Source: a virus
Taxonomy: Duplodnaviria; Caudoviricetes
IMG/VR virus record: IMGVR_UViG_3300042534_000372
Span: 1 to 56,714 of that record
Strand: one strand, 5' to 3'
DNA: 56,714 nt
Shown: piece by piece, positions 12,479 to 56,634 of the stretch
Layout of the letters: each line of letters starts with the position of its first letter
Position numbering within the stretch: position 1 is the stretch's first letter
Made by a program: the position numbers and the translations under genes
The notes under the pieces: model-generated
What the model was told of the DNA's origin: nothing
The model's input: the letters and a program-made list of their open reading frames with translations, nothing else
Databases searched by the model: none

Positions 12479-12549
12479 TGATCTAACGGGAGTCGAACCC
12501 TATCTTTCAGCTTTTCTGGCTGCGTGCTCTCCGTTACACTATTAGATCA
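12479..12549 (-). tRNA. Degenerate tRNA-like element (possible GAA/Phe anticodon)
   Basis: TGATCTAA/TTAGATCA acceptor stem, GTG/CAC D stem, CAGC/GCTG stem, GGGTTCGACTCCC T arm; non-canonical positions. Confidence 0.45.
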
Positions 12550-15558: not shown

Positions 15559-15915
15559 TCAGAATGGTAAATCATCAGTCTCTTCGTCTGGCGTTGTCAT
15601 TGGCTCTATATTATTAGCCTGTGCAGACTGAACCTTTTCAATCCTCCAAGCTTCAAGACTATTGAAATAATTAACTTTACCGTCCTTTTCCCATTTACGA
15701 CCACGAACATTAAAGTGAACCTTTACCTCTTCATTAAGGATCACAACGTCTAATAAATCGCATCTATCCTGTGTTAATTGAAATTTGATAAAATCATTCC
15801 ATTCTGAATTTCTTTCGTTTTCAACCTCAATAACAAACTCACGCTTTTTGAATTTATCACTAATTGATTGTGTCTCTTCTTTTACTATTACCTTACCGTT
15901 AATTTCGAAATTCAT
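15559..15915 (-). CDS. DUF3127-family single-stranded DNA-binding protein
   Basis: FKKREFV, FNVRGRKW, YFNSLEAWRI, acidic DDLPF tail. Confidence 0.9.
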   Translation of the reverse strand: MNFEINGKVIVKEETQSISDKFKKREFVIEVENERNSEWNDFIKFQLTQDRCDLLDVVILNEEVKVHFNVRGRKWEKDGKVNYFNSLEAWRIEKVQSAQANNIEPMTTPDEETDDLPF

Positions 15916-17336: not shown

Positions 17337-17735
17337 TTACACACTTCCCAAATCTCGTGATTTCTTAAATGCTTTGAACGACTCCTTAATGTCTTCTGTT
17401 GTTGGTAGCTCATATTCTATCGGTTTATTTTTTGGTGTAAAATGTAACTTCTGAAATGCAGTTAAAGGTTTTGCGTGATTGTGTAATGGTCTTTGATCCC
17501 AATCAGACATATCGGTATGGTTCCGGTTGCGTTCTCTTATTACGTGATCTAATCCGAACTTTTTAATCTTATTCCTTTCGACTGCGTTGAGGTATGCCTT
17601 TAATCTTCTTTCTAGATCTAATCTATATGGCAATGCTTCCGGCTTTCGCTCTTCTTCTCTTTCGATCTCAGGAGACTCTTGCACCCCCTGTTCTCTCATA
17701 TATAAAAAATCTTCTCTATTGCTTTGCATTGTCAA
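17337..17735 (-). CDS. Hypothetical protein
   Basis: ORF track. Confidence 0.6.
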   Translation of the reverse strand: MTMQSNREDFLYMREQGVQESPEIEREEERKPEALPYRLDLERRLKAYLNAVERNKIKKFGLDHVIRERNRNHTDMSDWDQRPLHNHAKPLTAFQKLHFTPKNKPIEYELPTTEDIKESFKAFKKSRDLGSV

Positions 17736-18381
17736 GCTCCTTAGTAATAAGTTCTTTATTCTTTTTACTCCACTTATATTTAAGTAGCGATTCGATAACG
17801 TATTGTTTTTTTGTGGGAATAGCCTTGATCATAGCGGTAACCTGTTCTTCCGAAACCCAATCCAACGAATCGCCAAATCCAAATTTGTAATCTTTAGGTG
17901 CTTGCGGTGTTTTAATATCGTCAGAATGAGTACTATCTGCGTCATCAATCTTGCCTACTGGAGTAAGGAAAGTATAAAGTAAACAGTTTTTAAGTGCATA
18001 TGTTGTAGCCTTACCAGCTCCTTTGTCTTGCGGGTCAATTCCGTGACCATAGCCAGCAAGCTCTATACTTTCCCCGCTTTCGTGTAGTAATATGTATTTA
18101 GTCTTAACCTTTGTGAAAACCGACTGTTTTGTTTTAAAATCTTTTGGTGTAGATTTACTGTATGGATCAACCTCTTCCCATCGATCTATTTGTGTTTCTT
18201 CTTCGATTCCAATAGGCAGAATGCAAAGTCCATTCTGTTCTAATGCATCGTTAAACACATCCGCAACATCCTTGTATTTAGTTCCGTCATAAGCCGAATT
18301 ACCAGTTCCGACACGGCTGTTTTTTTCCATTCCTTTAACAATCTTCATTACTGAAATAATTGCTTTTGCTATATTTTTCAT
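17716..18381 (-). CDS. erf: ERF-family ssDNA annealing protein
   Basis: LLHESGES, DKGAGKATTYALK, DDAD motifs. Confidence 0.85.
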   Translation of the reverse strand: MKNIAKAIISVMKIVKGMEKNSRVGTGNSAYDGTKYKDVADVFNDALEQNGLCILPIGIEEETQIDRWEEVDPYSKSTPKDFKTKQSVFTKVKTKYILLHESGESIELAGYGHGIDPQDKGAGKATTYALKNCLLYTFLTPVGKIDDADSTHSDDIKTPQAPKDYKFGFGDSLDWVSEEQVTAMIKAIPTKKQYVIESLLKYKWSKKNKELITKELDNAKQ

Positions 18382-18391
18382 TTGGTTTAGT

Positions 18392-18796
18392 TTAATTATA
18401 AGTGAAAATAAAATCTTCGTACCCCTGCATTTGTGGCGATGGTAAATAAATACTTTGCTCTTCTGCTACGAATAATCTAATCTTTTCTAAATAGTCCGTA
18501 AATTCTTTCGTGTCGTTATCTGGAGTGCTTTTAATCCTTAATTGCTTAACTCCAAATATTTCAACTTCTTCAATTCCTAGAAACTTTTCAGCAAAATATT
18601 TATGAAGATCGTTTTTATCGTTTCCAGTTTCATCTTGTATGCATGTAAGCCACATCCAATATAGAGAATTTTGTTTTACTGATCTTTTATTTTTGTGTTC
18701 GGTAAGATCAATTTTAGCTTTCTTTTCGATAAGCATTTTGCCTCGTAATCGAAAACGCTCAACGTCTAACGGTTTATTTAGGTCTAATTTCATCAT
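18392..18796 (-). CDS. NinB-like recombination protein
   Basis: RSVKQNSLYW, LHKYF..KFL, ST....KEF..YLEKI motifs. Confidence 0.75.
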   Translation of the reverse strand: MMKLDLNKPLDVERFRLRGKMLIEKKAKIDLTEHKNKRSVKQNSLYWMWLTCIQDETGNDKNDLHKYFAEKFLGIEEVEIFGVKQLRIKSTPDNDTKEFTDYLEKIRLFVAEEQSIYLPSPQMQGYEDFIFTYN

Positions 18797-18983
18797 CCGA
18801 ATATAAAAAGTAGAAAAATCATTAGCGCTATTCCTGCGATTATTGGAGAAATACACTCCAAATCTTTCATTTTTTGCTTGCAACTTCTGCCTTGTTCGCT
18901 CATTTCATTTAGTTTTTTGGTTTAAACAAATCTATGAATTCTACAATCAAATTAAGAATCTTTAGATATGTTATAAAACATGT

Positions 18984-19766: not shown

Positions 19767-19861
19767 TCTATTAAGTTTTTAGTTTGTACGTATGGTAATA
19801 TTAAATAAATTTCATTTCGTACCTCAACAAATCTTATTCCTGCTCATTATAAAGCAGTTTG

Positions 19862-20164
19862 TTAATATACACAACCGCATTTTCTGCACTTAAAAACAAC
19901 GCCAGTGCTTCCATATTGGACTTCCTCGTAAGCATGATCACAAACCGCCGCTTCGCTCTTTATAATATCAGGTAAATTTAATGCTTCACCAGTTTTATTT
20001 TCAGCCCCACTCGCTTGCTGTAATTTTAGTTTTTGGTTCTCTTTTTTAAGCTCCCTAACTTGGTCATCTAATTTATCAATACACTCACTAACATCAAACA
20101 TGTCTTCTGGTGCTTCAAGTCCTGCTAACTTACAATTATCTATTACTCTTTGCCAATCGCTCAT
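19862..20164 (-). CDS. Cassette protein crossing a hairpin arm, C-terminal Zn-ribbon
   Basis: LNLPDIIKSEAAVCDH...CRKCGC. Confidence 0.75.
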   Translation of the reverse strand: MSDWQRVIDNCKLAGLEAPEDMFDVSECIDKLDDQVRELKKENQKLKLQQASGAENKTGEALNLPDIIKSEAAVCDHAYEEVQYGSTGVVFKCRKCGCVY

Positions 20165-20248
20165 TACTTAGTTTTTAAGGTTATTTACTATTAATTTAGC
20201 TCATAGTATTCACGCACTAAACTTACCATTATCATTACCTGCAATATT

Positions 20249-20437
20249 TTATTTTTTGCCACCGCACTTACAATTTTTCAAATTGTTTAGGAATTGTCTT
20301 AGTGGCTCTTCCCAATGCTCAGCAAGTTTTTGAGAACCATTCACTGCCTTTACAAGTGTTGTATCAGGCATTTTCAATTGTCGCTCTATACCTCTAAGGC
20401 TTAGCGAGTGTTTATTTTTTCTTAACCAGTTAATCAT
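20249..20437 (-). CDS. Small HTH protein (paralog of 48980 and 53945)
   Basis: WLRKNK..LRGIERQLKMPDTTLVKAVN. Confidence 0.75.
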   Translation of the reverse strand: MINWLRKNKHSLSLRGIERQLKMPDTTLVKAVNGSQKLAEHWEEPLRQFLNNLKNCKCGGKK

Positions 20438-20986: not shown

Positions 20987-21276
20987 ATCAAATAAATTTT
21001 TAAATTCCCGTTAGTATTATGATCTTCAATGTTGTTTGGCTTTCAACACACGAAAATCTTGACAATGTGAGCGTAACGCTCCTCAATAAACAGTTAAACT
21101 TCATTCAGCCTCTATATTGATCGTTCCTCACAATGAGGCTTTACGAAGCTTAGCCAAACAACATTATGGAATCATTAAAACGAAAAGCTAACATGCAATA
21201 AAAAACATGCTTACTTTTCGTTCTCGTATCAGCTTTAGTGGGTTATCGGGCAATTTTAAATAAAAGCCCACGCACA

Positions 21277-21513
21277 CTATAATAGCATCTTTTCCATCTC
21301 ATTTCTAAACGCCTGAGCATTTGGTTGCCCATACTTATTCATTGCAATTACAGCCTTTTCTTCCTCTTCAAATCCGAGTTTTATTTGTGCTGTAATGCCA
21401 TCTAAATCAGTCCTAATTGCAACTTCATACTTATCATCTTCATCGTTGTATTCAATTGTCAATAAAACTTGTTCGTCATTCTCAATTTCGATTAATCTTG
21501 CAAATTTTGCCAT
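21277..21513 (-). CDS. Hypothetical protein wholly inside a hairpin loop
   Basis: Lies between arms 21564-21593 and 21186-21210. Confidence 0.75.
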   Translation of the reverse strand: MAKFARLIEIENDEQVLLTIEYNDEDDKYEVAIRTDLDGITAQIKLGFEEEEKAVIAMNKYGQPNAQAFRNEMEKMLL

Positions 21514-21598
21514 CGCTTTTTTATTTAAAATTAGTACTCGTATTTAGTTTTGTGCGTTATTTCGCACGTTTCTTATTGCTGTCCATTACAAACAACCT

Positions 21599-22944: not shown

Positions 22945-23042
22945 AATTTAAAAAATAAAATTTGCCTACGCTTCGCTTTTTAATTAGCTATATTAATATT
23001 GTTTTGTTCTAAATTGTCACCACTCACCTAACATTCGATCCA

Positions 23043-23393
23043 TTAGCGGTCATTATAATCATGTATAAATTCGCTAAAATCTGGTGTAGGGTTACTTACT
23101 AAATGCCCTGCCATTGTTATTTTTGATTGTTTACTATAATGTTCACATGAACGCTCATAGATTGCACCCGCTTTAAATGATTCTCTCATATCTAATTCAG
23201 AGAAACGACCGCTAACAAGCGGTATATTGCAGTTGCTATCGCTTTTTTCAACACCGTTCGCTTGCTTCGTCTGTTCTTCAAGGTAAGCTAATCTTTTTAA
23301 CCTTCGTAAAACATCTTCCTCAAACATTGTATGTCCGTTTTCAATAAATTTCTTTTGCTCGTATCCAGTTACTTTCTTGTATTCGTATTTCAT
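23043..23393 (-). CDS. Cassette protein crossing a hairpin arm
   Basis: CNIPLVSGRF...NDR*. Confidence 0.75.
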   Translation of the reverse strand: MKYEYKKVTGYEQKKFIENGHTMFEEDVLRRLKRLAYLEEQTKQANGVEKSDSNCNIPLVSGRFSELDMRESFKAGAIYERSCEHYSKQSKITMAGHLVSNPTPDFSEFIHDYNDR

Positions 23394-23791
23394 AATCGCT
23401 CACTATTTAAGTTATTCAACATTTATTCATTTAATCAAAGTCGGTGGGTATTTGAACGGCAACCGACAACATACCGCAAGCCGATTATAAACAAATAAAA
23501 TTATCTACGTTTATTTCTCTTTTTCCGCTTTAATTTATTTTTTAAACATATAGCATTGTGTTTGCTTGTATTTCTTCCTGTAGTTATTTCTGTACCAAAC
23601 ACCTTAAAGCTTTCTATTAAATCATATTGTAAGCTTGAATGCTCGTTTCCTATTGGGTTCATAATTTTCTCAATTTATAATATAAATGTAAAAATCATAT
23701 TTAAGTACACTTATATAGTTGATTAATAATATTTTATATTTTGGTCACCTTATCAGTGAGGTGACCAAATACGATTCTTACATTCGATCCA

Positions 23792-24001
23792 TTATAAATC
23801 AACAATCTCAATACCTTTCCCTATTAATTTCAAAAACTTCTCAATCCATAATAACTTGTTTTGCAAAGCTGTTAACTTTTGTGGAACATCACAAGGCTCA
23901 CAATCTAATACTACCGATTGATCTACACGCTTCGGATATTCTGCTTTTAATTTATCGTAAATCTTTTGAACGGGTTCTATGTATCCTTTAGGCTTCCTCA
24001 T
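23792..24001 (-). CDS. Hypothetical protein
   Basis: ORF track. Confidence 0.5.
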   Translation of the reverse strand: MRKPKGYIEPVQKIYDKLKAEYPKRVDQSVVLDCEPCDVPQKLTALQNKLLWIEKFLKLIGKGIEIVDL

Positions 24002-29175: not shown

Positions 29176-29874
29176 TTAGTATTTTTCGTTGTGATCGAAT
29201 TTTCCTGCGTTTTTAATGTCAATTTTCTTTGGTGAATTTTGCGCGGAACTTACATTTTCGTTTTTTTCCCAAGTTCTTATGCAAGCTTTCCAATCTTTCA
29301 TTTTATTTTTCCCGACCAGCCAGCCTTTAGATTCGTAAAAGTCAAAGAATTTTATAGGGTCAACATTGTTTTTCCTTTCAATACAATAAGCTTTTAATTG
29401 CTCTGGTGTGGGTGGCAAAAATCTTTTTGCCCTTATTACTTCTTTAACTTCTTTTACTTCTTCTCTTTCTTTTCCTTCTTTAGTTGTTGTTAGCTGTGTG
29501 TTACCTGTCTGTTGTCTGTCTGTTACCTGTCCGTTGTCTGTCTGTTGGTCGCCTTGATAACTCTCATAATTACAAACAGTTAACCGTGTTGTTTTTCGTA
29601 AGCCTTGCGTAGTGATCATTAAATCTTTTTCTAGCAATTTAAAAAAGGTTCTTACTTTCTGAATTGACCATTTACCTCCGAATCGTTTAGCCCATGAATT
29701 AAGGCTATAAAGAGATTGCCCCCTCTTGCATTCGATTAATTCCCCATCTATAAGGTCTTTATTATCCACGTAATTAACAGACATAAGGATAACACACCAC
29801 GCTTTGAACTTCTCAGCATCGGAAAATACCCAATGCTTCTGTATGTCCCTGCTTAGTTTTATCCAATTTGCCAT
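29176..29874 (-). CDS. Replication initiator / replisome organiser
   Basis: WIKLSR, KRGQ...S, TVCNYESYQ, FFDFYESKGW...MKDWKA motifs; internal CTGT repeats near 29506-29543 may be iterons. Confidence 0.85.
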   Translation of the reverse strand: MANWIKLSRDIQKHWVFSDAEKFKAWCVILMSVNYVDNKDLIDGELIECKRGQSLYSLNSWAKRFGGKWSIQKVRTFFKLLEKDLMITTQGLRKTTRLTVCNYESYQGDQQTDNGQVTDRQQTGNTQLTTTKEGKEREEVKEVKEVIRAKRFLPPTPEQLKAYCIERKNNVDPIKFFDFYESKGWLVGKNKMKDWKACIRTWEKNENVSSAQNSPKKIDIKNAGKFDHNEKY

Positions 29875-46034: not shown

Positions 46035-46724
46035 TTATCTAGCTTTTAATTTTTGTTGTTTTTTAATTGCCATATCGTAATCAAATTTAAGAGACGATAC
46101 GCTTTTACTCCTATCGAAATATCCGTTCTTTTCAACAGCCTCGATAAAATGAATAACCGCATCTAATCCAGTATTCCTATCATCCTGAGCAACCGCTTCT
46201 TTTTGTTTCGGCTGTCTTTCTTCAATCTTATATCCTAAACGTTTAATTTCGTTCTCTATAGGCTTTAGAATCGAATCTATTTGCTTTTGCTGATCTTCTG
46301 CATAAATCTTATATTCAGAAGCAGTCATTTGCATTTCTTCCTCGTGTGTTTTTGATTCGATTGATTTTGGATAATCAAAATATATTGATCTGTAAACCTG
46401 CTTTAAGCTATCTAATGCTTTTATCTTGCCCTCTTTAGTATCTCGCAAGTCGTAAACCATCTTTAACCCATCATACAACAATGATAATTTACGCTGCTTT
46501 AATCTCATTCCCTGAATCATCACATCCAAATCAATCAAATTACTCATTTCCTCACTTGAAAATAACTCTTGGAGCTCTGTTATGAATTTAGAATAAGCCT
46601 TTTTAGCTAGAATTTTCTTAGCAGGATTAATCGATACGCCACGAATGATCATTAAATAATCCTCGCTTATTATCATTTGCTGACAATCCTTTACGCTAAT
46701 TGAATGTATTGAGTGATAGTTCAT
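46035..46724 (-). CDS. Probable tail assembly chaperone
   Basis: Helical, directly upstream of the TMP, with own TATCTTTG element at 46752-46759. Confidence 0.5.
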   Translation of the reverse strand: MNYHSIHSISVKDCQQMIISEDYLMIIRGVSINPAKKILAKKAYSKFITELQELFSSEEMSNLIDLDVMIQGMRLKQRKLSLLYDGLKMVYDLRDTKEGKIKALDSLKQVYRSIYFDYPKSIESKTHEEEMQMTASEYKIYAEDQQKQIDSILKPIENEIKRLGYKIEERQPKQKEAVAQDDRNTGLDAVIHFIEAVEKNGYFDRSKSVSSLKFDYDMAIKKQQKLKAR

Positions 46725-46839
46725 AGATTTTATCTATTAGAATTTATATTCCAAAGATACAAAAATAATGTGTTGTATAACATGTTTAGTGTTACTGATT
46801 AATTACCCGATAGATTTGGTGTTAATCAATTTTTTTGGG

Positions 46840-46847: not shown

Positions 46848-46907
46848 TGTATTATTAATGGACAAGGCTAAGGGTAGTTTTTAAACCGATTAATAAAATA
46901 AAACAAA

Positions 46908-47165
46908 ATGAGTGAAATTAATAGATTAGAGATATTGGCGAATAGTTGTATAAAACACAACTGCTCCTTTTCAGGATTTGAGAGTAATGCGATAATTGAA
47001 GCCATGTTAGAATACCACAAAAGCGAGGTTGAAAAATTACCTTTAGCTAGTATTAACAACCGAAGGGAACTGTTAATTGCTGTATTCAAACAGGTGAAAG
47101 GTGTTACAATACCCGAAACAGATGAACAGATAGAATACCTCGTTGATAAATACAGCAATTTATAG
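46908..47165 (+). CDS. Cassette protein crossing a hairpin arm
   Basis: KLPLASINNRRELLIA...NL*. Confidence 0.75.
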   Translation: MSEINRLEILANSCIKHNCSFSGFESNAIIEAMLEYHKSEVEKLPLASINNRRELLIAVFKQVKGVTIPETDEQIEYLVDKYSNL

Positions 47166-47269
47166 TTGTTAATGAATAGGTGTAAGAATAGTGCGTGATT
47201 GAATACAGATAAATATTAATTAAATACAAACCGCCCGAACCGAATGTGCGAGGGCAAAAACCAAACAAA

Positions 47270-47428
47270 ATGAAATATACTTACTTGATAATGTTTTTAC
47301 TTGCACTAGTTGCTTGGATCTATTGCGCAGTTAATTTAGAGCTAATTGAAATGTGGATTTCACTAGCCTTTATATGGATTGGTGTATTAGGAATGCGAGC
47401 GGAGGGGAATGGTGATAATAGATATTAG
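47270..47428 (+). CDS. Small two-TM protein inside a hairpin loop
   Basis: MKYTYLIMFLLALVAW... Confidence 0.65.
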   Translation: MKYTYLIMFLLALVAWIYCAVNLELIEMWISLAFIWIGVLGMRAEGNGDNRY

Positions 47429-47583
47429 CATTATTTTTACATAGTATTATAATACTGCGCCAAAGCCTTTGTTTCAATTTTGAGTATAACGATACTTTGG
47501 CGTGGTTTATAATGATAATAATAAGAACCGTGCGATATTTAGCACAATTTTAATACGAGTTACTAATTAAAAATAAAAAAGCG

Positions 47584-47877
47584 ATGGAAAAGAATTGTAA
47601 TAATTGCGAAAAGGTAAATGGTTGCACAATGAAAGCTTACTGCAAGGGGCACAGACTTAATTATTGCAGATTTTACGAAGTGGAAGCAAAGCCTGTGATA
47701 GAAGAAAATGAATTTAAAACCAAGTTAAAAAACTTTGAAGACGCGGCAAGACCTTTAATTAAATGGCTTTGCGAAAACGAGCACCCAATGGTAACTGCAA
47801 TAATAACGACAACATCATGTGAGCTTTTAGAGGGCAAGTGTTGTAACCATAAAATATATGATTACGTTAAAGATTAG
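47584..47877 (+). CDS. Hypothetical protein inside a hairpin loop
   Basis: FEDAARPLIKWLCENEHP motif. Confidence 0.75.
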   Translation: MEKNCNNCEKVNGCTMKAYCKGHRLNYCRFYEVEAKPVIEENEFKTKLKNFEDAARPLIKWLCENEHPMVTAIITTTSCELLEGKCCNHKIYDYVKD

Positions 47878-48076
47878 TGCGTAGGGTTTTATTTTTAACA
47901 ACTTAAAAACGAGAACCAGACTTAAGCATGGTTTTTATTTAATATTATAATACTTCGCCAAAGCCTTACTTGAATTTTGAGTATAACGATACTTTGGCGT
48001 GGTTTATAATGAGCAGGGCTTAGTTGCGTTTAAACTAAATTTGATACGATAACACAAACTAACAAGACAAAGAGCG

Positions 48077-48382
48077 ATGGAAGAAACATTAAAAAAATAC
48101 GGAATAAGTAAGCAATTGTTTTTAAAGGTTACTGAGTTTATAAAACTACAAGTTGACTTAGGTATGATTAATACCCTTACTGACCAAGAGCAAATAGCAG
48201 CAGAAATATTAATAATGGCGAGCGAGGGGATTAAGCTGAAAACGAGTAATGATAAATGCAATTTAGCTAGTATTAACAATAGCGAAGCGATGGGTTGCGA
48301 GCACAAAAATTATTCATATACATTAAATAACGATACAAAACTATGTGATGATTGTGGGTGTATATTTGAGCGAGAAAACTGA
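48077..48382 (+). CDS. Cassette protein crossing a hairpin arm, C-terminal Zn-ribbon
   Basis: CNLASINNSEAMGCEH...CDDCGC. Confidence 0.75.
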   Translation: MEETLKKYGISKQLFLKVTEFIKLQVDLGMINTLTDQEQIAAEILIMASEGIKLKTSNDKCNLASINNSEAMGCEHKNYSYTLNNDTKLCDDCGCIFEREN

Positions 48383-48432
48383 TTGTTAATGAATGGTGGT
48401 ATGGTTAGATTTTTAACGACTTAAAAGAACGA

Positions 48433-48696
48433 ATGATGATAGTATTAACAGACCAAGATTTAGAAGAAATAGTTGCAACTGCACACATGGCAGGACAGCA
48501 AAAAGCAGGGGTTAAAACACCAACTTATTATGATGCACACCTTTATTATGCGAGGCAAGTTAAAAAATTAACTATACCACGTGTTAGCAAACGAAGTGAA
48601 CTGTTAATTGGCTTGCTTGAAATGCTCGAAAAAGAAGGTGGTAATGATTTTATAGATAAAGCTGAAATAGTAGCAAAATATGAAGCCAATTTATAG
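48433..48696 (+). CDS. Cassette protein crossing a hairpin arm
   Basis: KKLTIPRVSKRSELLIG...NL*. Confidence 0.75.
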   Translation: MMIVLTDQDLEEIVATAHMAGQQKAGVKTPTYYDAHLYYARQVKKLTIPRVSKRSELLIGLLEMLEKEGGNDFIDKAEIVAKYEANL

Positions 48697-48744
48697 TTGC
48701 TAATGAATGGCTAAAGTTACTTTTAAACTTAAACATCTGATACA

Positions 48745-48975
48745 ATGGCAGAAGAGAAAATAGAAATTTCAGAAAGTGAAAGATTTATGCAGGTCTACTT
48801 TAAGGAATTGCAAAAAGTGAAAGAGAGATTTCGCGTTAAAGATTCTGAATTTATAGGAATATCAGAATCAAAAGCGAGCAGAATTCTAAATGGAAAACAA
48901 ATAGATATTGAAGCTATGCTTGAGATGGCTCCCATGTCTGGATATACTTTTGAATTTAAATTAATAGAAAGATAA
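48745..48975 (+). CDS. XRE-like HTH protein after the array B terminus
   Basis: ISESKASRILNGKQIDI; resembles 19214-19468. Confidence 0.7.
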   Translation: MAEEKIEISESERFMQVYFKELQKVKERFRVKDSEFIGISESKASRILNGKQIDIEAMLEMAPMSGYTFEFKLIER

Positions 48976-48979
48976 TAAC

Positions 48980-49156
48980 ATGAGCGAATCAATTAAATGG
49001 TTACAGAAAAATAAACGCTTTATAAAGATTAGCGTAATTGAAATTGAGCTTGGAATGGCAGATACTATCTTAAGTAAGGCCGTGAATGAAAAACAGGCAT
49101 TATCTAAACATTGGGATAAGCCTTTGAATGAGTTTTTAACAGAATTAAAGAAATAG
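48980..49156 (+). CDS. Small HTH protein (paralog of 20249 and 53945)
   Basis: MSESIKWLQKNKRFIKISVIEIELGMADTILSKAVNE, read manually. Confidence 0.7.
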   Translation: MSESIKWLQKNKRFIKISVIEIELGMADTILSKAVNEKQALSKHWDKPLNEFLTELKK

Positions 49157-49305
49157 GAAATGGAAGAATTTATCATTTATGCTATAAGTATTATTCTTGC
49201 ATTTACAATGGGTAGATACGTAAAGAGTACGCCATTTAAAATAATACTAATGGTTATACTAATCTGTGTCGCTTCAGTAATAAAAAATACAATATAAATA
49301 AACCA

Positions 49306-49926
49306 ATGAAAAAAGAATTCAAATTACCTAAAGGAGTTGATATTGATCAAATAAATATTGACGTAAAAGGAAACTTATTAACAGTTATCTACAAGGAAGA
49401 AAGCAAACCAATTATTAAAGCTGGTGAGTGGTGGTATCACAGCACCGGAACATTGAATTTAATACTTGAAGTTAATCAGGATAGTCGAATAGCAAAGTGT
49501 ATGCCTATTTATGGCGATGGGATAAATGCATCATTCCACGGATTTGAAACAATGACTCGTAAGGCCGACATGAAAGAAGTTAAAAGTCTTTTGATGGATG
49601 AGGCTGTGAAGAAAGGGTATGATTATGGAACAATTGTTTATGGATTCGTAAATATTGGACAAACTTCTAAACTTAATGATGCTCCTTTTTATTTCGATAA
49701 CGGCGGAATGTATTTAGGTAATGTTTGTATATTTAATTATCACAGTGGCAAATGGGCTGAGATCATCGAAGAGAAGAAAGATTTTTACAGGGTAGTTAAA
49801 TGCAGCCTGAAGGTATTAAAGGTTATATGCGATGGATTGCCTGAAACAGATACTTTATCTAAGGTGATGACCAAACAGAAATGTTACAAATACATATATG
49901 ATAATTGGGATAAACTAAATAAATAA
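49306..49926 (+). CDS. Hypothetical phage protein
   Basis: GKWAEII and RKAD..EV..LL..EA.KKGY motifs. Confidence 0.75.
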   Translation: MKKEFKLPKGVDIDQINIDVKGNLLTVIYKEESKPIIKAGEWWYHSTGTLNLILEVNQDSRIAKCMPIYGDGINASFHGFETMTRKADMKEVKSLLMDEAVKKGYDYGTIVYGFVNIGQTSKLNDAPFYFDNGGMYLGNVCIFNYHSGKWAEIIEEKKDFYRVVKCSLKVLKVICDGLPETDTLSKVMTKQKCYKYIYDNWDKLNK

Positions 49927-49928
49927 AA

Positions 49929-49960
49929 CAAAACCCTCTTTAATCGGAGGGTTTTTTCTT
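49929..49960. terminator. Intrinsic terminator
   Basis: AAAACCCTC...GAGGGTTTTTT. Confidence 0.8.
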
Positions 49961-50339
49961 TTCAACTGTTCGGTATTTCCGGATAGTTGGATTTTGATAG
50001 ATTACTAACTGTTCAGTATTAAATCAATAGTCGCTAACATTAAACATCCATCTAAAATAGTCAGAAAAACAGCCATGTTATTAATTTTACGTATTGAATT
50101 ATTATTTCTTGCTAGCCATATGTAAATTAATGTAATCATGTTTATTATTTTTAGTTATTGTTTATTTCAAACTCATCAATTCATAAATAAAAAATATAGC
50201 CCACAGCACAAATAATGTCACAAACATTTTGATGTAAATAATATTCTCAGTCCAAACTCCAAGTATTAAAGATGATGAGAATACAAGGATGCATAAATAT
50301 TGTATTAGTCTAATCTTTTTCATAGTCTTTATTTTTAAT

Positions 50340-50591
50340 CTAACTCAACTCACAACTAGTAAGTGCATATTTCATTTTATGAATTAAATCTTGTTTTTTC
50401 AATCCATCCTTACAATGATTATTAATCAACTGCATTAACTCAGTATAAAAATCAGGTTTAATTGTGCTTTTATTTTCACTGAGTTTTGACTCTAACCATT
50501 CAATGTATTTTTGACTACTCGTTTCAAATAATAATTCAACACCTTTAAATTTAGATCTCTTTTCTTGTTCGAATTGTTCTCTGTGATTCAT
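50340..50591 (-). CDS. Hypothetical protein
   Basis: YIEWLE motif; ORF track. Confidence 0.6.
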   Translation of the reverse strand: MNHREQFEQEKRSKFKGVELLFETSSQKYIEWLESKLSENKSTIKPDFYTELMQLINNHCKDGLKKQDLIHKMKYALTSCELS

Positions 50592-50951
50592 GTTTATTAT
50601 TTTTAGTTTAATTATTTGTATTCAATGTCCTCTATGTGATATATCATTAAAAGAGATTTAAAGATAATACACACTCGATATAATTACATTGATCTAATCA
50701 TATCAGGCAAAGTTAATACCGGCTATGTTCCGGCTGTTGTACTCTCTAAGCTTACGCTATCACATTGAGAACGGAGTTAAGATTGTGGCTCATTGCTCCG
50801 GATATTTTAACAATTAACTCTATACCATGCCTTTTAACTTATTCGATTTATAGAACATTATTAAACAGGTCTTATCTTTTGTTTTTAGTCTGGCTTAAAT
50901 CTTTACAGGCACTTAAAGAGAATTGATAACTTTAAGCGAATAGAAGGCAAG

Positions 50952-51075
50952 AAAAAATCCTGTTGGCAGACCGTTCAAAACGGGTGAAACATGCCAAACA
51001 GGACTAATATAGATTGAAATAATAATGTCTTTTCTGTAATAGATGTTTCACCTTCTATTCAATAAGACAAAGTTA
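50952..51075 (-). promoter_or_regulatory. Promoter plus putative attenuator/leader RNA
   Basis: TAACTTTG element; GGTGAAACAT/ATGTTTCACC pairing overlaps a CCTGTTTGGCA...TGCCAACAGG terminator. Confidence 0.5.
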
Positions 51076-51219
51076 ATCATTATTAATGTGTTTTACAACA
51101 TGTTTAAAGATGTTCTATATTAAAATAATTCTGTGTAGGTTTGTTGTACCGAAAAAATCGATCAAACATTACGAGTATATTCTCCCCTACCAAAAGGAGG
51201 CTCATGATCGGATAATAAG

Positions 51220-51249
51220 AAAAGCCAGGTCTTCGGATTTGGCTTTTTT
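51220..51249. terminator. Intrinsic terminator
   Basis: AAAAGCCAGGTC-TTCG-GATTTGGCTTTTTT. Confidence 0.75.
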
Positions 51250-51312
51250 ATTTGCTATTGTAATATATAAGGTGTATATTTGTGTAGTATTAATTAAAAC
51301 TAAAACAATAAC

Positions 51313-51459
51313 ATGAGAAAACTAATAGACATTGAAGGAGAATTAGACAAAGAAGGTTCTTTAGTCAATAAGCTTAATGTAATGGCTGCGAAGAAAGGTA
51401 AGTATTTAAAAAACTACATCGAGGATGTTTTGAAAGATCATGTTGATAAAAGTAAGTAG
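51313..51459 (+). CDS. Ribbon-helix-helix-like regulator heading array C
   Basis: MRKLIDI...KLNVMAAKKGKYLKNYIEDVL; TATATTTG at 51275-51282. Confidence 0.6.
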   Translation: MRKLIDIEGELDKEGSLVNKLNVMAAKKGKYLKNYIEDVLKDHVDKSK

Positions 51460-51526
51460 TTGTTAACGGATTACGGCTATGAAGCGTTGCCGATTAAAAC
51501 GCTATAACTTTCAAATTTAAACTAAG

Positions 51527-51679
51527 ATGAGTAAAGAGAACAAAAATTCGGATAAGCAACAAAACGGCAATGATTTTATAGCCGATGTTACCAAACGTTA
51601 TTACTTAACCAAGGATAGACAGGGAAATTACCAAATATTAAATGAGTTGGCTTATGAAAAGAAGTTGATTTACGGATAA
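51527..51679 (+). CDS. Cassette peptide (MSKENKNSDKQQNGNDFIADVTKR...)
   Basis: 50-aa ORF starting in a loop, read manually. Confidence 0.55.
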   Translation: MSKENKNSDKQQNGNDFIADVTKRYYLTKDRQGNYQILNELAYEKKLIYG

Positions 51680-51766
51680 TGTTTGGTAATGAGCATTGGT
51701 AAGTTTTGAACCGATAATAACCGATTAATTTCGATACGAGTAGTAATGTAAATTAAAATTTTTATC

Positions 51767-52108
51767 ATGAATATAGAACAGGCAATAATAGATATTAAAC
51801 ACTTTAGTCAAACCCATATAGATTGGGCGGAGTATTTTGAAAAAAACCCAAACATTGAGAGTGAGTATTTAAAAACTGGCAAATGGAGTTCCGCAATAGA
51901 ACATCGCGAAATAGTTTCAAAATACGATAATGTTTTAAAAATTTTAGAACATGCAAAGACTGAAACGAGTAATAAAGATGAGGTTTTAAATTTACCTGAT
52001 GTTATAAAATCGTGCGACAACTGCAAATTTGTTAAAGAGTGTAGACATAAAGGATTAGCTGATAATGAAAAAAGAATATGCAAATTTTATGTTGAGCATG
52101 TTTTATAA
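51767..52108 (+). CDS. Cassette protein crossing a hairpin arm
   Basis: LNLPDVIKSCDNC; stop is the TAA core of the next site. Confidence 0.75.
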   Translation: MNIEQAIIDIKHFSQTHIDWAEYFEKNPNIESEYLKTGKWSSAIEHREIVSKYDNVLKILEHAKTETSNKDEVLNLPDVIKSCDNCKFVKECRHKGLADNEKRICKFYVEHVL

Positions 52109-52167
52109 CGTTGAATGTAAGGTGCGTTGCTGTACCAATGTTAAACAAAGAATAAAACTTAAATATT

Positions 52168-52401
52168 ATGAGCAAAAATAACAAAAAAGATACTGAGCAA
52201 TGCACTTTACATAGTGTTATAGAGAGTGCCTTGCCATGCCCTTTTTGTGGTGGTACTAACTTAGCTTTTATTAGTGATGCTGATGGAGATAGAGACGTTG
52301 AATTTATAGTTTGCATGGCTGATAACTGCCTTGCAGATGGTAGAATAGGTAAAAATAAAGAGGATGCTTTAAATAAGTGGAACAAAAGGCATTCTCTATA
52401 A
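52168..52401 (+). CDS. Lar-like (restriction alleviation) Zn-finger cassette protein
   Basis: LPCPFCGG...C...C...A..KWNKR. Confidence 0.7.
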   Translation: MSKNNKKDTEQCTLHSVIESALPCPFCGGTNLAFISDADGDRDVEFIVCMADNCLADGRIGKNKEDALNKWNKRHSL

Positions 52402-52447
52402 CGTTTATGGTATGGATAGTAAATTAACGATTAAATAAAACTGAATT

Positions 52448-52759
52448 ATGAAATTAGCAATAGAGATATTAAACAGAGAGATAGCACAGCGAAAGTTAGC
52501 AAACAAACACGAACATTTAAGAAAGGATGTGTGTACACAAGAATTGAAAGAGCTTGAAAGTGTAGTTAATTTATTAGCTATACCAATTGTTAGCGTTTCG
52601 TTGTTTGATACATTACAAGACTTAATAGAAGTGTACGAAGAAAGAGAAACCAAAGCAAGCAAGATGGGAAATTGGAGTGAGGCCTTCCAAAACGAAATAA
52701 GGGTAGGTGTATTACAGCATTTAGCACAATTGCATAAACATAAAAACAATGAACGCTAA
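52448..52759 (+). CDS. Cassette protein crossing a hairpin arm
   Basis: NLLAIPIVSVSL. Confidence 0.7.
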   Translation: MKLAIEILNREIAQRKLANKHEHLRKDVCTQELKELESVVNLLAIPIVSVSLFDTLQDLIEVYEERETKASKMGNWSEAFQNEIRVGVLQHLAQLHKHKNNER

Positions 52760-52819
52760 CGGTCGCAGGTATGTTTAGTGCCTGATTTAGAAGTAAAAAC
52801 AATCAAAATATAAATAACG

Positions 52820-53035
52820 ATGAAAAAAGAACAAAACTTGAATACAGCAAAACAACAGGCATTAAATATACCTGTTGTTAGCGGTCGTTTTTTTGAAGTG
52901 TTTGACAAAGAAAATGATTATAATTTAGCTGTTGATTTAAAAAACTATGTTAATGAGCATATATTTAAACACTTAGTTAATAATTATGATTTAAAAATAA
53001 CTTATCGTGAATGGTTGTCGCAAAATGACCGCTAA
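52820..53035 (+). CDS. Cassette protein crossing a hairpin arm
   Basis: QALNIPVVSGRF...NDR*. Confidence 0.7.
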   Translation: MKKEQNLNTAKQQALNIPVVSGRFFEVFDKENDYNLAVDLKNYVNEHIFKHLVNNYDLKITYREWLSQNDR

Positions 53036-53102
53036 TGAACAAGAATATGGGCTGATTGCCCTTGAAAATTAGTATAAATTTTAATTAAAAACAGATAAGA
53101 TT

Positions 53103-53429
53103 ATGAAACGTAGAAATTTAATTAGCAAAACGGCAATTTGCCTATATTTAGTGTTAGCAGTATGTTATTCTTCTTTTTCACAAGAGGCTGACACTGTTAA
53201 AATAGATACTACAGTTAATAAAATATGTTTGGAGCGTGGGCATGTATCTGTCGGGGTAATTATGAAAACAGCAATGTACTGCACCCCGTATAGTATAGAT
53301 ACTGACAGCACAACAGTAATGGTTTACCCCGCTTGCAATTACGAAAGTTTTACATGTAAAAGATGCGGTAAGTATGTTAGCCAATTAGAAAAGGAGCGGA
53401 GGGTTGTAATTTGGCGTAAAGAAGAATAA
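53103..53429 (+). CDS. Cassette protein with signal peptide and Zn-ribbon
   Basis: Hydrophobic signal region is encoded by the hairpin arm; CKRCG. Confidence 0.7.
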   Translation: MKRRNLISKTAICLYLVLAVCYSSFSQEADTVKIDTTVNKICLERGHVSVGVIMKTAMYCTPYSIDTDSTTVMVYPACNYESFTCKRCGKYVSQLEKERRVVIWRKEE

Positions 53430-56055: not shown

Positions 56056-56225
56056 ACTATAAAGATAATAAAAATAAAAATCAACTAATAAATTAATAGG
56101 CTTACTTGTAATTAATACAAATAACACGTTTGTGTTAATTATTATTGCATTACTATTGGCTAGTGACACATTTGTGCTTATATTTGTAATAGACAATAAG
56201 GAAATAAACTTTAAAACTAAACAAG

Positions 56226-56465
56226 ATGAAAACTTCAACTTTAAAAAACAAATTAAACAAACTGAATATTGAATTTACAATTGATTCCAACTATCAAGTA
56301 ATTGATTTTACAATAAATAACAAAAGTTATTCAGGTAGTTTAAATAATGATGAAGATGAAGTTTTCGGTTTTTGCGCTATAACTGGTTATGATGATGCAA
56401 GCCAAGAAACAACTAGAAGATTCTTTGATAATTTTAATCAGGTTTTAAGACATTCAAATAAATAA
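56226..56465 (+). CDS. Hypothetical protein (allele of 390-629)
   Basis: ORF track. Confidence 0.8.
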   Translation: MKTSTLKNKLNKLNIEFTIDSNYQVIDFTINNKSYSGSLNNDEDEVFGFCAITGYDDASQETTRRFFDNFNQVLRHSNK

Positions 56466-56466
56466 A

Positions 56467-56634
56467 ATGGATATTAAATTTAAAGGTCAAAAGCTCTCAA
56501 CTTTAGAATGGGTTGAGAGTGATTCCATACTACAAGGCAGGCATTGCGAAACCAAAAGAATTTTCTTGAAAACAAAAGAAAAGTTCCCGCAGTGGACTGA
56601 ATGTAAACCAGAAACGGTTATTCAAATTAAATAA
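56467..56634 (+). CDS. Small YopX-like protein (allele of 631-798)
   Basis: Same translation as 631-798. Confidence 0.6.
   Translation: MDIKFKGQKLSTLEWVESDSILQGRHCETKRIFLKTKEKFPQWTECKPETVIQIK

Follow-up and report, generated by a model that had tools for sequence, protein, structure and literature searches.

The complete genome of a marine Bacteroidota phage, the IMG/VR record IMGVR_UViG_3300042534_000372, was analysed over its whole length of 56,714 bases (hereafter the window; CheckV completeness estimate 100%, classed as linear). It encodes a capsid protein, a portal protein, a large and a small terminase, an ERF annealing protein (17716-18381, minus strand), two DNA methylases and a radical-SAM protein. 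Rows of small genes start at ~46.9 kb, reading rightward, and at ~24.5 kb, reading leftward, with early-gene arrays on the plus strand at ~46.9-53.5 kb and on the minus strand at ~19.8-23.8 kb. Here we present an analysis of the hairpins that punctuate these arrays and of the small open reading frames (ORFs) that are read through them. The reading of hairpin arms in frame, which an initial annotation of the sequence had reported, is confirmed, its proposal that protein halves are fused in frame is supported, and a second set of stems, closing the downstream part of each gene, is described. Word searches of a limited collection of articles returned no description of such an architecture.

The unit that we designate the 5' module opens with a left arm, which begins at a YAAY core, usually directly after or within the preceding stop codon. 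Its complement, the right arm, falls within the ORF at a distance of 55-290 nt downstream and has an RTTR core at its end. Eleven ORFs had been named as starting inside the loop, and each of their start codons does sit between two complementary arms. The RTT core had further been read as an in-frame Val or Ile codon in 10 of the 11, and the offset from the start proved divisible by three in 10/10: ORFs 46908, 48077, 48433, 51527, 51767, 52168, 52448 and 52820 on the plus strand, and ORFs 23043 and 19862 on the minus strand. The remaining one, ORF 53103, has its core 50 nt from the ATG and out of frame, as had been noted. The probability of finding at least 10 of 11 in frame by chance is p = 1.3e-4 if the three frames are equally likely and p = 0.006 if one frame is barred by a TTAG/TTAA stop, the module copies being not fully independent in either calculation. 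In translation the right arm reads L-x-[IL]-P-x-[VI].

The arm duplexes of the 5' modules comprise 19-29 pairs at -18 to -33 kcal/mol; they close loops of 55-370 nt in sites 114-400 nt long, and the minimum-free-energy (MFE) structure from RNAfold recovers the closing stem in seven of the nine 5' segments folded. Fourteen 5'-type units have YAAY/RTTR cores, an inner box of at least 7 nt and asymmetric spacers (5-7 nt vs 2-4 nt). When the cores were left out, an arm of these 14 units paired with its own partner at a mean of -24.3 kcal/mol, vs -10.3 +- 3.9 kcal/mol with the arms of other units, and its own partner was the row minimum in 12 of the 14. The arms are therefore not generic AT-rich matches, since pairing with the proper partner is far stronger than pairing with arms from elsewhere. 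A duplex scan confined to the window and using a word prefilter returned 36 sites vs 13.3 in mononucleotide shuffles. Two other scans were less selective: a first rule-based hairpin scan over all loci was too permissive (381 sites vs 132 in shuffles), and a local-fold scan across the window found stable folds everywhere and did not discriminate.

Variants of the arrangement occur. Some 5'-type units enclose an entire small ORF whose stop lies just before the right arm, as at 47170-47449 (+), around the 60-residue ORF 47246-47428 (23 pairs, -19.5 kcal/mol), and at 21189-21588 (-), around the whole of ORF 21277-21513 (20 pairs, -25.7 kcal/mol). A strong hairpin with the same cores at 23678-23794 (-) (25 pairs, -24.7 kcal/mol) lies wholly upstream of the start of ORF 23501-23662, and no ORF start is seen inside it. 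Some left arms (for example 52766-52776, 51697-51706 and 20227-20218 on the minus strand) read TA-n-n-TTT by eye, which we take to resemble the -7 element of Bacteroidota promoters, presumably TAnnTTTG; they are without the final G and without a properly spaced -33 element. A role of the left arm as a promoter was dropped because the likeness is weak.

A further layer, absent from the initial annotation, is formed by what lies between a right core and the left core that follows. This 3' module consists of the C-terminal part of the protein (C-part) and the stop, and a terminal stem closes it too: the five or six codons at its start pair with its last codons and the stop. The MFE structure shows the closing stem in 9 of 10 segments, and ten 3'-type units pair with their own partners at -14.4 kcal/mol vs -7.3 +- 3.2 kcal/mol with others. 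The core-proximal 10 nt of the 3' module match the module's own downstream core better than the core of the upstream hairpin in 9/10 genes, and the TAA of the 3' core is itself the stop codon in 5 of the 10 window genes. Paired ends were also present in all 19 foreign loci examined, loci which we denote by L numbers. There the ends vary on both strands yet stay paired, with A-T pairs in L005 and L025 vs G-C pairs in L017 and L044; the C-parts of L005 and L017 are homologous, and those of L025 and L044 are alike at their ends only. Since the stem's 3' strand is coding in some modules and past the stop in others (L016 vs L012), the closing stem is not a protein feature. Taken with the 5' hairpins, the closed 3' segments make each array a chain of stem-closed modules, one abutting the next at GTTA/TAAC.

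Comparison with other phages shows how these modules travel. In a blastn search of 50,697 phage records, the sole nucleotide matches to the window were three Cellulophaga phages, ~125-130 nt each, and these matches correspond exactly to two of its hairpins, those of ORF 52820 (family F1) and ORF 51527 (family F2). What ORF 51527 and phi17:1 gp8 have in common is limited to leader, start and peptide as far as the junction Val; the genes upstream of phi17:1 gp8 and the rest of that protein are unrelated to the ORF 51527 locus. For ORF 52820 and its counterparts phi13:2 gp028 and phi19:3 gp033, again, the hairpin part alone is common. Further loci were fetched from IMG/VR by exact 19-nt words from the left arms. 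The F1 word was present in 15 contigs and the F2 word in 30, with unrelated flanks; all 45 contigs had the left arm and leader, two F2 loci were without a right arm and three were cut short by the end of the locus. The flanks switch at YAAYG on the left and at GTTR on the right. Each family is single-copy in the window and is found at 84-95% identity in phages with nothing else in common.

In F1, the loop ATG reads through the core in frame in 15 of 16 loci, the window included, and the loci have 12 C-part clusters, with upstream genes in 11 clusters of 12. In F2, 26 of 31 loci could be evaluated (the five others being those cut by the locus end or without a right arm); every one of the 26 is in frame, their C-parts form 19 clusters and their upstream genes fall into 18 clusters of 23. 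The N-terminal parts (N-parts) of the two families are 20-21 residues long, and nucleotide homology ends at GTTA. The hairpin alone is common to 115 of 120 F1 locus pairs and to 293 of 300 F2 pairs, the latter being those with enough flank among 325. Where homology runs past the hairpin it does so downstream in 6/6 pairs and upstream only in none, six more pairs being near-identical contigs. Among cellular-genome bins, the F2 word gave nine matches, six of them true hairpins on contigs of metagenome-assembled genomes with mixed labels; the other three were chance matches in GC-rich DNA, ~4 being expected by chance. Three loci deserve mention for what adjoins the hairpin. In L019 and L030 the upstream ORFs stop four and one residue, respectively, after an arm-like junction, which makes these 3' modules nearly empty and thus places two hairpins almost back to back. 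In L044 (F2) the leader is fused in frame to a 198-residue C-part that looks by eye like an HNH/NUMOD-type homing endonuclease; because the module ends match those of the 47-residue C-part in L025, its interior was replaced.

Whole modules move as blocks as well. Phages phi13:2 and phi19:3 have a block, 99.2% identical, that runs exactly from one left core to the next within differing surroundings. Single modules of the window, set between foreign flanks, occur on contigs from other metagenome runs, with ends at 47170, 47440/47450, 48387, 52768-52881 and 53044-53158: contigs of two other runs carry exactly 47170-47440/47450, one X4 contig covers 47042-47174 only and another 53044-53158 only, and an X2 contig starts exactly at 48387. 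One other-run contig is without 50136-50587, a segment with two minus-strand ORFs (50162-50323 and 50340-50591), and since the joint falls in a 21-nt leader repeat that precedes each start, the segment was lost by deletion from one leader repeat to the other. A search for close relatives in which to map gains and losses of modules gave none for ORF 46035-46724 among the viral contigs searched, and the relatives of the ERF gene had nucleotide similarity to the window in the ERF gene only. A ~95-nt direct repeat (47420-47515 and 47918-48012; D10 and D17, 77-98% identical) flanks ORF 47584-47877; each copy has its own local hairpin, and other metagenome contigs break there (47436, 47940). This repeat is a second kind of junction element.

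The encoded proteins were split at the core codon and their halves searched separately, and the separate homology predicted for the halves was found, which supports the reading that exchange fuses them. The initial annotation had reported that halves recur in different pairings. Within the window this is weaker than described, the paired C-halves having no mutual tblastn match (E <= 0.01) and their likeness being confined to the first and last codons, where the segment has its inverted-repeat ends. Recurrence beyond the window, on the other hand, is massive. For ORF 23043, none of 111 matching cluster representatives is full length: ~100 match the N-domain only and 7 the C-domain only, with a few extending somewhat beyond the junction. 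Each of the 7 C-domain matches has a different N-part, joined at an arm-like motif. By eye, ~30 of 57 tails of the ORF 23043 N-domain family show an arm-like junction, and one protein, P0090, joins an N-domain of this type to a C-part resembling the one in ORF 51767.

The N-domain of ORF 48077 is paired with 7 different C-parts, and the invariant columns all fall within residues 1-48. Six full-length homologues consist of the N-domain, an arm-like motif ending in Val or Ile and then mutually non-aligning C-parts, one of them an XRE-type helix-turn-helix (HTH) domain. Sequence identity between P0007 and P0008 is complete as far as the junction Val, beyond which the two are unrelated. In an AlphaFold2 model of ORF 48077, residues 1-52 have a predicted local distance difference test (pLDDT) score of 80-92, the arm-coded residues 53-73 a score below 50 and the C-part 53-57, a prediction in keeping with two folded parts that a flexible linker connects. 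The N-domain of ORF 51767 is found elsewhere as a stand-alone 63-residue protein, with another C-part in the absence of the arm motif, and with a third C-part behind an arm-like motif. In ORF 19862, phrog_10610 matches residues 12-58, in the N-part, and phrog_4188 matches residues 74-97. A Lar-like domain (PF14354, E 6e-10, residues 22-74, profile positions 4-57 of 58; phrog_599) lies wholly inside the 3' module of ORF 52168 (52168-52401), where it is likely to be anti-restriction cargo. These sequence comparisons show that long 5' modules do carry domains, and that real domains occur in combinatorial pairings of N- and C-parts.

The individual modules are as follows, beginning with the plus-strand array. 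The 5' module of ORF 46908 (46856-47055) has the left core TAAT, a left arm at 46865-46888, the ATG at 46908, a right arm at 47026-47049 and the core ATTA, read as Ile, at 47052 (21 pairs, -27.2 kcal/mol). It starts ~10 nt past a TAnnTTTG-like motif at 46833, a putative promoter element; the left arm, at 46856 just downstream of it, would therefore be inside the transcript. In the 3' module (47052-47173) the ends ATTAACAAC and GTTGTTAAT pair, an inner 12-bp stem follows, and the R-box matches the downstream core at 9/10 and the upstream core at 7. The 5' module of ORF 48077 (48007-48275) has arms at 48012-48044 and 48242-48272 (22 pairs, -18.4 kcal/mol) and the core ATTA at 48272, again Ile; its 3' module, a Cys-rich C-part at 48272-48390, has the ends ATTAACAAT and ATTGTTAAT and an R-box match of 9/10 downstream vs 6.5 upstream, and its closing stem is absent from the MFE structure. 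ORF 48433 has a 5' module at 48387-48586 with the core GTTA at 48583 as Val (24 pairs, -26.4 kcal/mol) and a 3' module at 48583-48704 (19 pairs, -17.6 kcal/mol), whose inner stem differs on both strands from its counterpart in ORF 46908, the two C-parts being among those without a tblastn match.

Further along, the F2 module of ORF 51527 (51464-51590) encodes a peptide ending GNDFIADV, with the core GTTA at 51587 (-29.8 kcal/mol); the ends of the 3' module (51587-51690) are GTTACCAAAC and GTTTGGTAAT (21 pairs, -19.1 kcal/mol; R-box 9.5 downstream vs 7 upstream). The loop of the ORF 51767 5' module (51687-52004; core GTTA at 52001; 20 pairs, -20.4 kcal/mol) holds the 63-residue domain, and in the Cys-rich 3' module at 52001-52109 the stop TAA is the 3' core (24 pairs, -18.5 kcal/mol). 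A 17-residue leader is encoded by the 5' module of ORF 52168 (52106-52219; core GTTA at 52216; 24 pairs, -26.7 kcal/mol), followed by the 3' module at 52216-52402 with the complete Lar-like restriction-alleviation domain and a perfect 17-bp stem (-29.2 kcal/mol). For ORF 52448, the 5' module (52399-52592; core GTTA at 52589; 25 pairs, -23.3 kcal/mol) is without its closing stem in the MFE structure, and the 3' module (52589-52760; 17 pairs, -20.3 kcal/mol; R-box 9.5 downstream vs 5 upstream) has its stop TAA as the 3' core. The F1 module of ORF 52820 (52757-52880) ends its peptide with QALNIPVV at the core GTTA at 52877 (-33.2 kcal/mol), and its 3' module (52877-53036; 22 pairs, -22.1 kcal/mol) has the ends TTAGCGGTC and GACCGCTAA. 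The array closes with the 5' module of ORF 53103 (53033-53156; 29 pairs, -28.3 kcal/mol), the one with the out-of-frame core; its arm lies within a hydrophobic N-terminal stretch that resembles a signal peptide by eye.

On the minus strand, ORF 23043 has a 5' module at 23213-23487 with the core GTTA at 23216 as Val (25 pairs, -32.9 kcal/mol), and its 3' module at 23042-23216 has the same end sequences as that of ORF 52820. The 5' module of ORF 19862 (19963-20251) has the core ATTA at 19966 as Ile (19 pairs, -19.1 kcal/mol) and is followed by a Cys-rich 3' module at 19846-19966 (R-box 9 downstream vs 4 upstream). Two repeats lie apart from the modules: a 300-nt direct repeat near both ends of the record (367-666 and 56203-56502, 90% identical), and an 11-nt unit repeated in tandem in four to five copies at 29488-29547, inside a minus-strand ORF (family D6).

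In 14/14 5' units and in 10/10 3' units the duplex is stabler on the sense strand, and the stems of 11 5'-type units contain 143 A-U, 75 G-C and 39 G.U pairs, with no A.C among five 1x1 mismatches. This bias tracks gene direction in both arrays and therefore points to a fold of the transcript; we infer that the stems probably act on the sense strand, most likely in mRNA. There, a stem might close each module into an mRNA fold of its own and so insulate it, or might present the A-rich start region in a loop, Bacteroidota being, to our knowledge, without Shine-Dalgarno pairing. It might also provide a processing or stability signal, as the RNase III sites of T7 do, or as Correia elements would. 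[quoted passage not shown] No Rfam family matched the hairpins at the gathering score in the window, where the sole match was a tRNA at 12479-12548 (-), 31.5 bits. Three other roles were considered and dropped: a cruciform in double-stranded DNA, for which the loops are too long; ribosome hopping over the hairpin of the gene 60 kind, for which the take-off and landing codons are mismatched by eye; and a leader for capsid targeting or protease cleavage, as in the T4 internal proteins, which would leave the non-coding arm unexplained in genes that belong to early arrays.

As to the enzymes that might act on the modules, six-frame searches of the complete genome with PF00589 (tyrosine recombinase), PF00239 (serine recombinase) and PF01797 (Y1 transposase) gave no match; in a control, PF00589 gave matches in 14 of 14 genomes. 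No transposase was found in these Y1, tyrosine and serine searches or in a Pfam scan of 30 ORFs, the DDE families not being searched as such. In phi19:3 a tyrosine recombinase gene, gp036 (L003 4006-5262), lies inside the module array; it is absent from phi13:2 and from the window. ORF 18392-18883 has a likeness to NinB, for which Pfam gave no match, and ORF 15559-15915 one to a single-stranded DNA-binding protein (SSB); neither label is supported.

Our preferred account, which we hold with slightly better than even confidence, is that the early arrays are chains of stem-closed modules, joined in phase and exchanged by short-homology recombination. A 5' module would start after the previous stop and supply the ATG behind an A-rich leader, then either a complete N-domain or no more than a short leader peptide, and the right arm; a 3' module would start at the GTTA core and supply a C-terminal domain, a stop (often the TAA of the TAAC core) and its own terminal stem. 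As all connectors have one sequence in one phase, the frame stays open whichever 5' module is joined to whichever 3' module, and the comparison with other phages shows such joining to have happened many times. Exchange would proceed by recombination at short shared sequences, either the conserved modules of ~125 nt or the connectors of 4-15 nt, assisted during co-infection by the phage's ERF single-strand annealing protein, and selection would then keep the in-phase products only. Work on lambda Red and Rad52-like recombinases indicates that a module of ~125 nt is ample homology for such proteins.

Several observations weigh against this account or against parts of it. Dozens of unrelated C-parts are joined at exactly the same 4 nt, a precision greater than is usual for short-homology recombination and one to be expected of an enzyme that cuts and joins site-specifically; exchange right at the core, and exchange through an enzyme of this sort, are candidates. 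The breakpoints had been predicted to cluster at the core codon, and homology does stop at GTTA in F1 and F2, but left cores, A-rich leaders before the ATG and the point where the N-domain gives way to a variable linker serve as breakpoints too. The F1/F2 loop peptide is an unconstrained hydrophilic leader and not a protein module: codon differences are 794 nonsynonymous vs 189 synonymous in F2 and 477 vs 57 in F1, and entropy is equal at the three codon positions. The frame is nevertheless open in 16 of 17 and 12 of 12 distinct loop sequences of the two widespread families, and it survives five independent replacements of the loop content with the arms unchanged. Twelve of 42 F1/F2 C-parts open with their own ATG directly past the core. 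As to the fold, the loop position of the start and the folding of RNA would both be readings of sequence. RNAalifold recovers the stem in F1 and F2 and no covariation, none being visible in loci that had been retrieved with an exact word of the left arm. Choosing the units on the sense strand could have inflated the strand bias, although optimisation was the same for both strands. The sense strand may also act as folded single-stranded DNA, since it is likely to be the lagging-strand template if the genes are co-oriented with replication. Finally, presenting the start region cannot explain the stems of 3' modules or loops of 170-290 nt, and insulation and processing or stability signals, too, leave the closed 3' modules unexplained.

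A bolder form of the proposal, possible but clearly less probable, is that the stem-closed modules with their palindromic, phase-locked GTTA/TAAC connector form a recombination system in its own right, the viral equivalent of exon shuffling. The stems would bring module ends together in single-stranded nucleic acid, where a nuclease or annealing activity would cut and join them exactly at the cores. If this is true, Bacteroidota phages assemble two-domain early proteins from a common pool of N- and C-domains together with homing-endonuclease cargo, and the connector is a new class of recombination site that doubles as a coding linker and a stop signal.

Quite unlikely, in our estimate, is an integron-like system, in which each hairpin would be an attC-like site folded from single-stranded DNA and a recombinase, perhaps the host's, would swap cassettes at the G|TT core. 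The sites do match attC in their YAAY/RTTR cores, two boxes, spacers of 5-7 vs 2-4 nt and length of 114-400 nt, the junctions are precise at 4 nt, and the start of the 3' module is complementary to its own far-end core in 9/10 genes, as the start of an integron cassette is to its own. The tyrosine recombinase inside the phi19:3 array would also suit such a system, but the complete genome studied here has no match to PF00589, PF00239 or PF01797. The inherited unit also has the wrong composition, for homology past the hairpin lies downstream in 6/6 pairs and never upstream, the opposite of a cassette made of an ORF and a downstream attC, and the phi13:2/phi19:3 block is bounded by left and not right cores. 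Moreover, the ORFs start within the site, and the fold is favoured on the sense (top) strand, where attC uses the bottom strand. Selfish palindromic elements of the MITE kind, comparable to Rickettsia palindromic elements (RPEs), that transpose into TTA/TAA and survive by keeping the frame open, the arrays being piles of insertions, are likewise unlikely. They would account for terminal inverted repeats of 17-30 bp on every module, for single modules in foreign contexts and for F1 and F2 at 84-95% identity in phages otherwise unalike, and RPEs are known to fuse in frame (PMC10969869). Such elements should be numerous within a genome, and a given family has one copy per genome; the modules are very diverse, carry real domains (Lar, XRE HTH, Zn ribbons) and swap their loop content while the arms stay constant. 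The enzyme searches described above gave no transposase, and there is no clear target-site duplication, the TA/TAA common to both ends being part of the conserved core.

We regard as very improbable the explanation in which the junction motif L-x-I-P-x-V-S is simply a selected protein linker or short linear motif, spread by ordinary domain shuffling, with the left arms due to chance or to some unrelated feature of the RNA. Many proteins of <50% identity retain the motif (the ~30 of 57 tails read by eye), and it lies in a predicted flexible linker, as this explanation would have it, but complementarity between the left arm, which is non-coding, and the coding right arm is specific, nucleotide identity ends at the core and not at a protein boundary, and pairing of the ends persists in 3' modules both where the 3' end is coding and where it is past the stop (again L012 vs L016). 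The loop peptides, with the substitution counts given above, are unconserved as protein.

Most phage early genes are tiny ORFs of unknown function and origin, and the chain of stem-closed modules described here offers a concrete route to building them, from ready-made expression heads and autonomous domains in fixed phase. It also explains why pieces of ~125 nt are the sole nucleotide similarity among otherwise unrelated marine phages, and it gives a rule for annotation: the start in the loop, the junction at a Val/Ile codon, the stop often in the TAAC core. Since the system is present in cultured Cellulophaga phages, crosses, structure probing and ribosome profiling are feasible. If the stems are the substrate of exchange, they represent a new kind of recombination site.

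Among known systems, integron cassettes, whose attC sites have a bottom-strand fold with extrahelical bases, resemble the modules in form. Both systems have imperfect bipartite inverted repeats with AAC/GTT cores around a variable loop, arrays of small promoterless genes, precise core junctions and a segment-start core that matches its own inverse far-end core. Of three features that define the system, two fail: no integrase is encoded here (PF00589, six frames), and the co-inherited unit is a hairpin with the part downstream and not an ORF with a downstream site. The third, the strand, appears to differ, the sense-strand fold being favoured here, and ORFs begin in the site and read through it. 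In polymorphic toxins, a demarcation motif such as VENN in CdiA is a short motif that marks the swap point of a variable C-terminal module. The modules resemble these in having a short conserved peptide or DNA motif at a recombination junction, and differ in that both sides vary, that the motif is one strand of a hairpin with a non-coding partner, and that the products are phage early proteins of 50-130 residues in which no toxin/immunity pairs are evident. The Mu G segment and shufflons use in-frame inverted repeats in coding sequence to join a constant N-part to alternative C-parts. Inverted repeats inside coding sequence and read in frame are found here as well, but no invertase match was obtained (serine/tyrosine recombinase), antisense ORFs look non-coding by eye, and the variation is seen between genomes.

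Palindromic elements of the RPE/MITE type (PMC10969869) are also of ~100-150 nt, lie in unrelated genes and are translated in frame. The present modules, by contrast, stand at gene starts with the start codon, abut in arrays and are single-copy per genome and spread across genomes, and neither a clear target duplication nor, in the searches described above, a transposase was seen. Nearest in effect are the PeSL (promoter-early stem-loop) cassettes of T4-type phages (PMC2839356). These are repeated junction elements in plastic early regions, which span the interval from the previous stop towards the next start and contain a stem; they are intergenic, defined by a sigma-70 promoter and equipped with a short, local terminator stem. 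In both cases, cassette recombination reshuffles small genes of unknown function, here by module swaps and by deletion between 21-nt leader repeats. Against the PeSL description just given, the stem in the present arrays is long-range, with loops of 55-370 nt that enclose the start codon and part or all of an ORF; the right arm is translated in a fixed phase; the 3' modules are stem-closed too; and the outcome is fused proteins and not a change of gene order only. We place the finding as a variant of junction-cassette-mediated shuffling.

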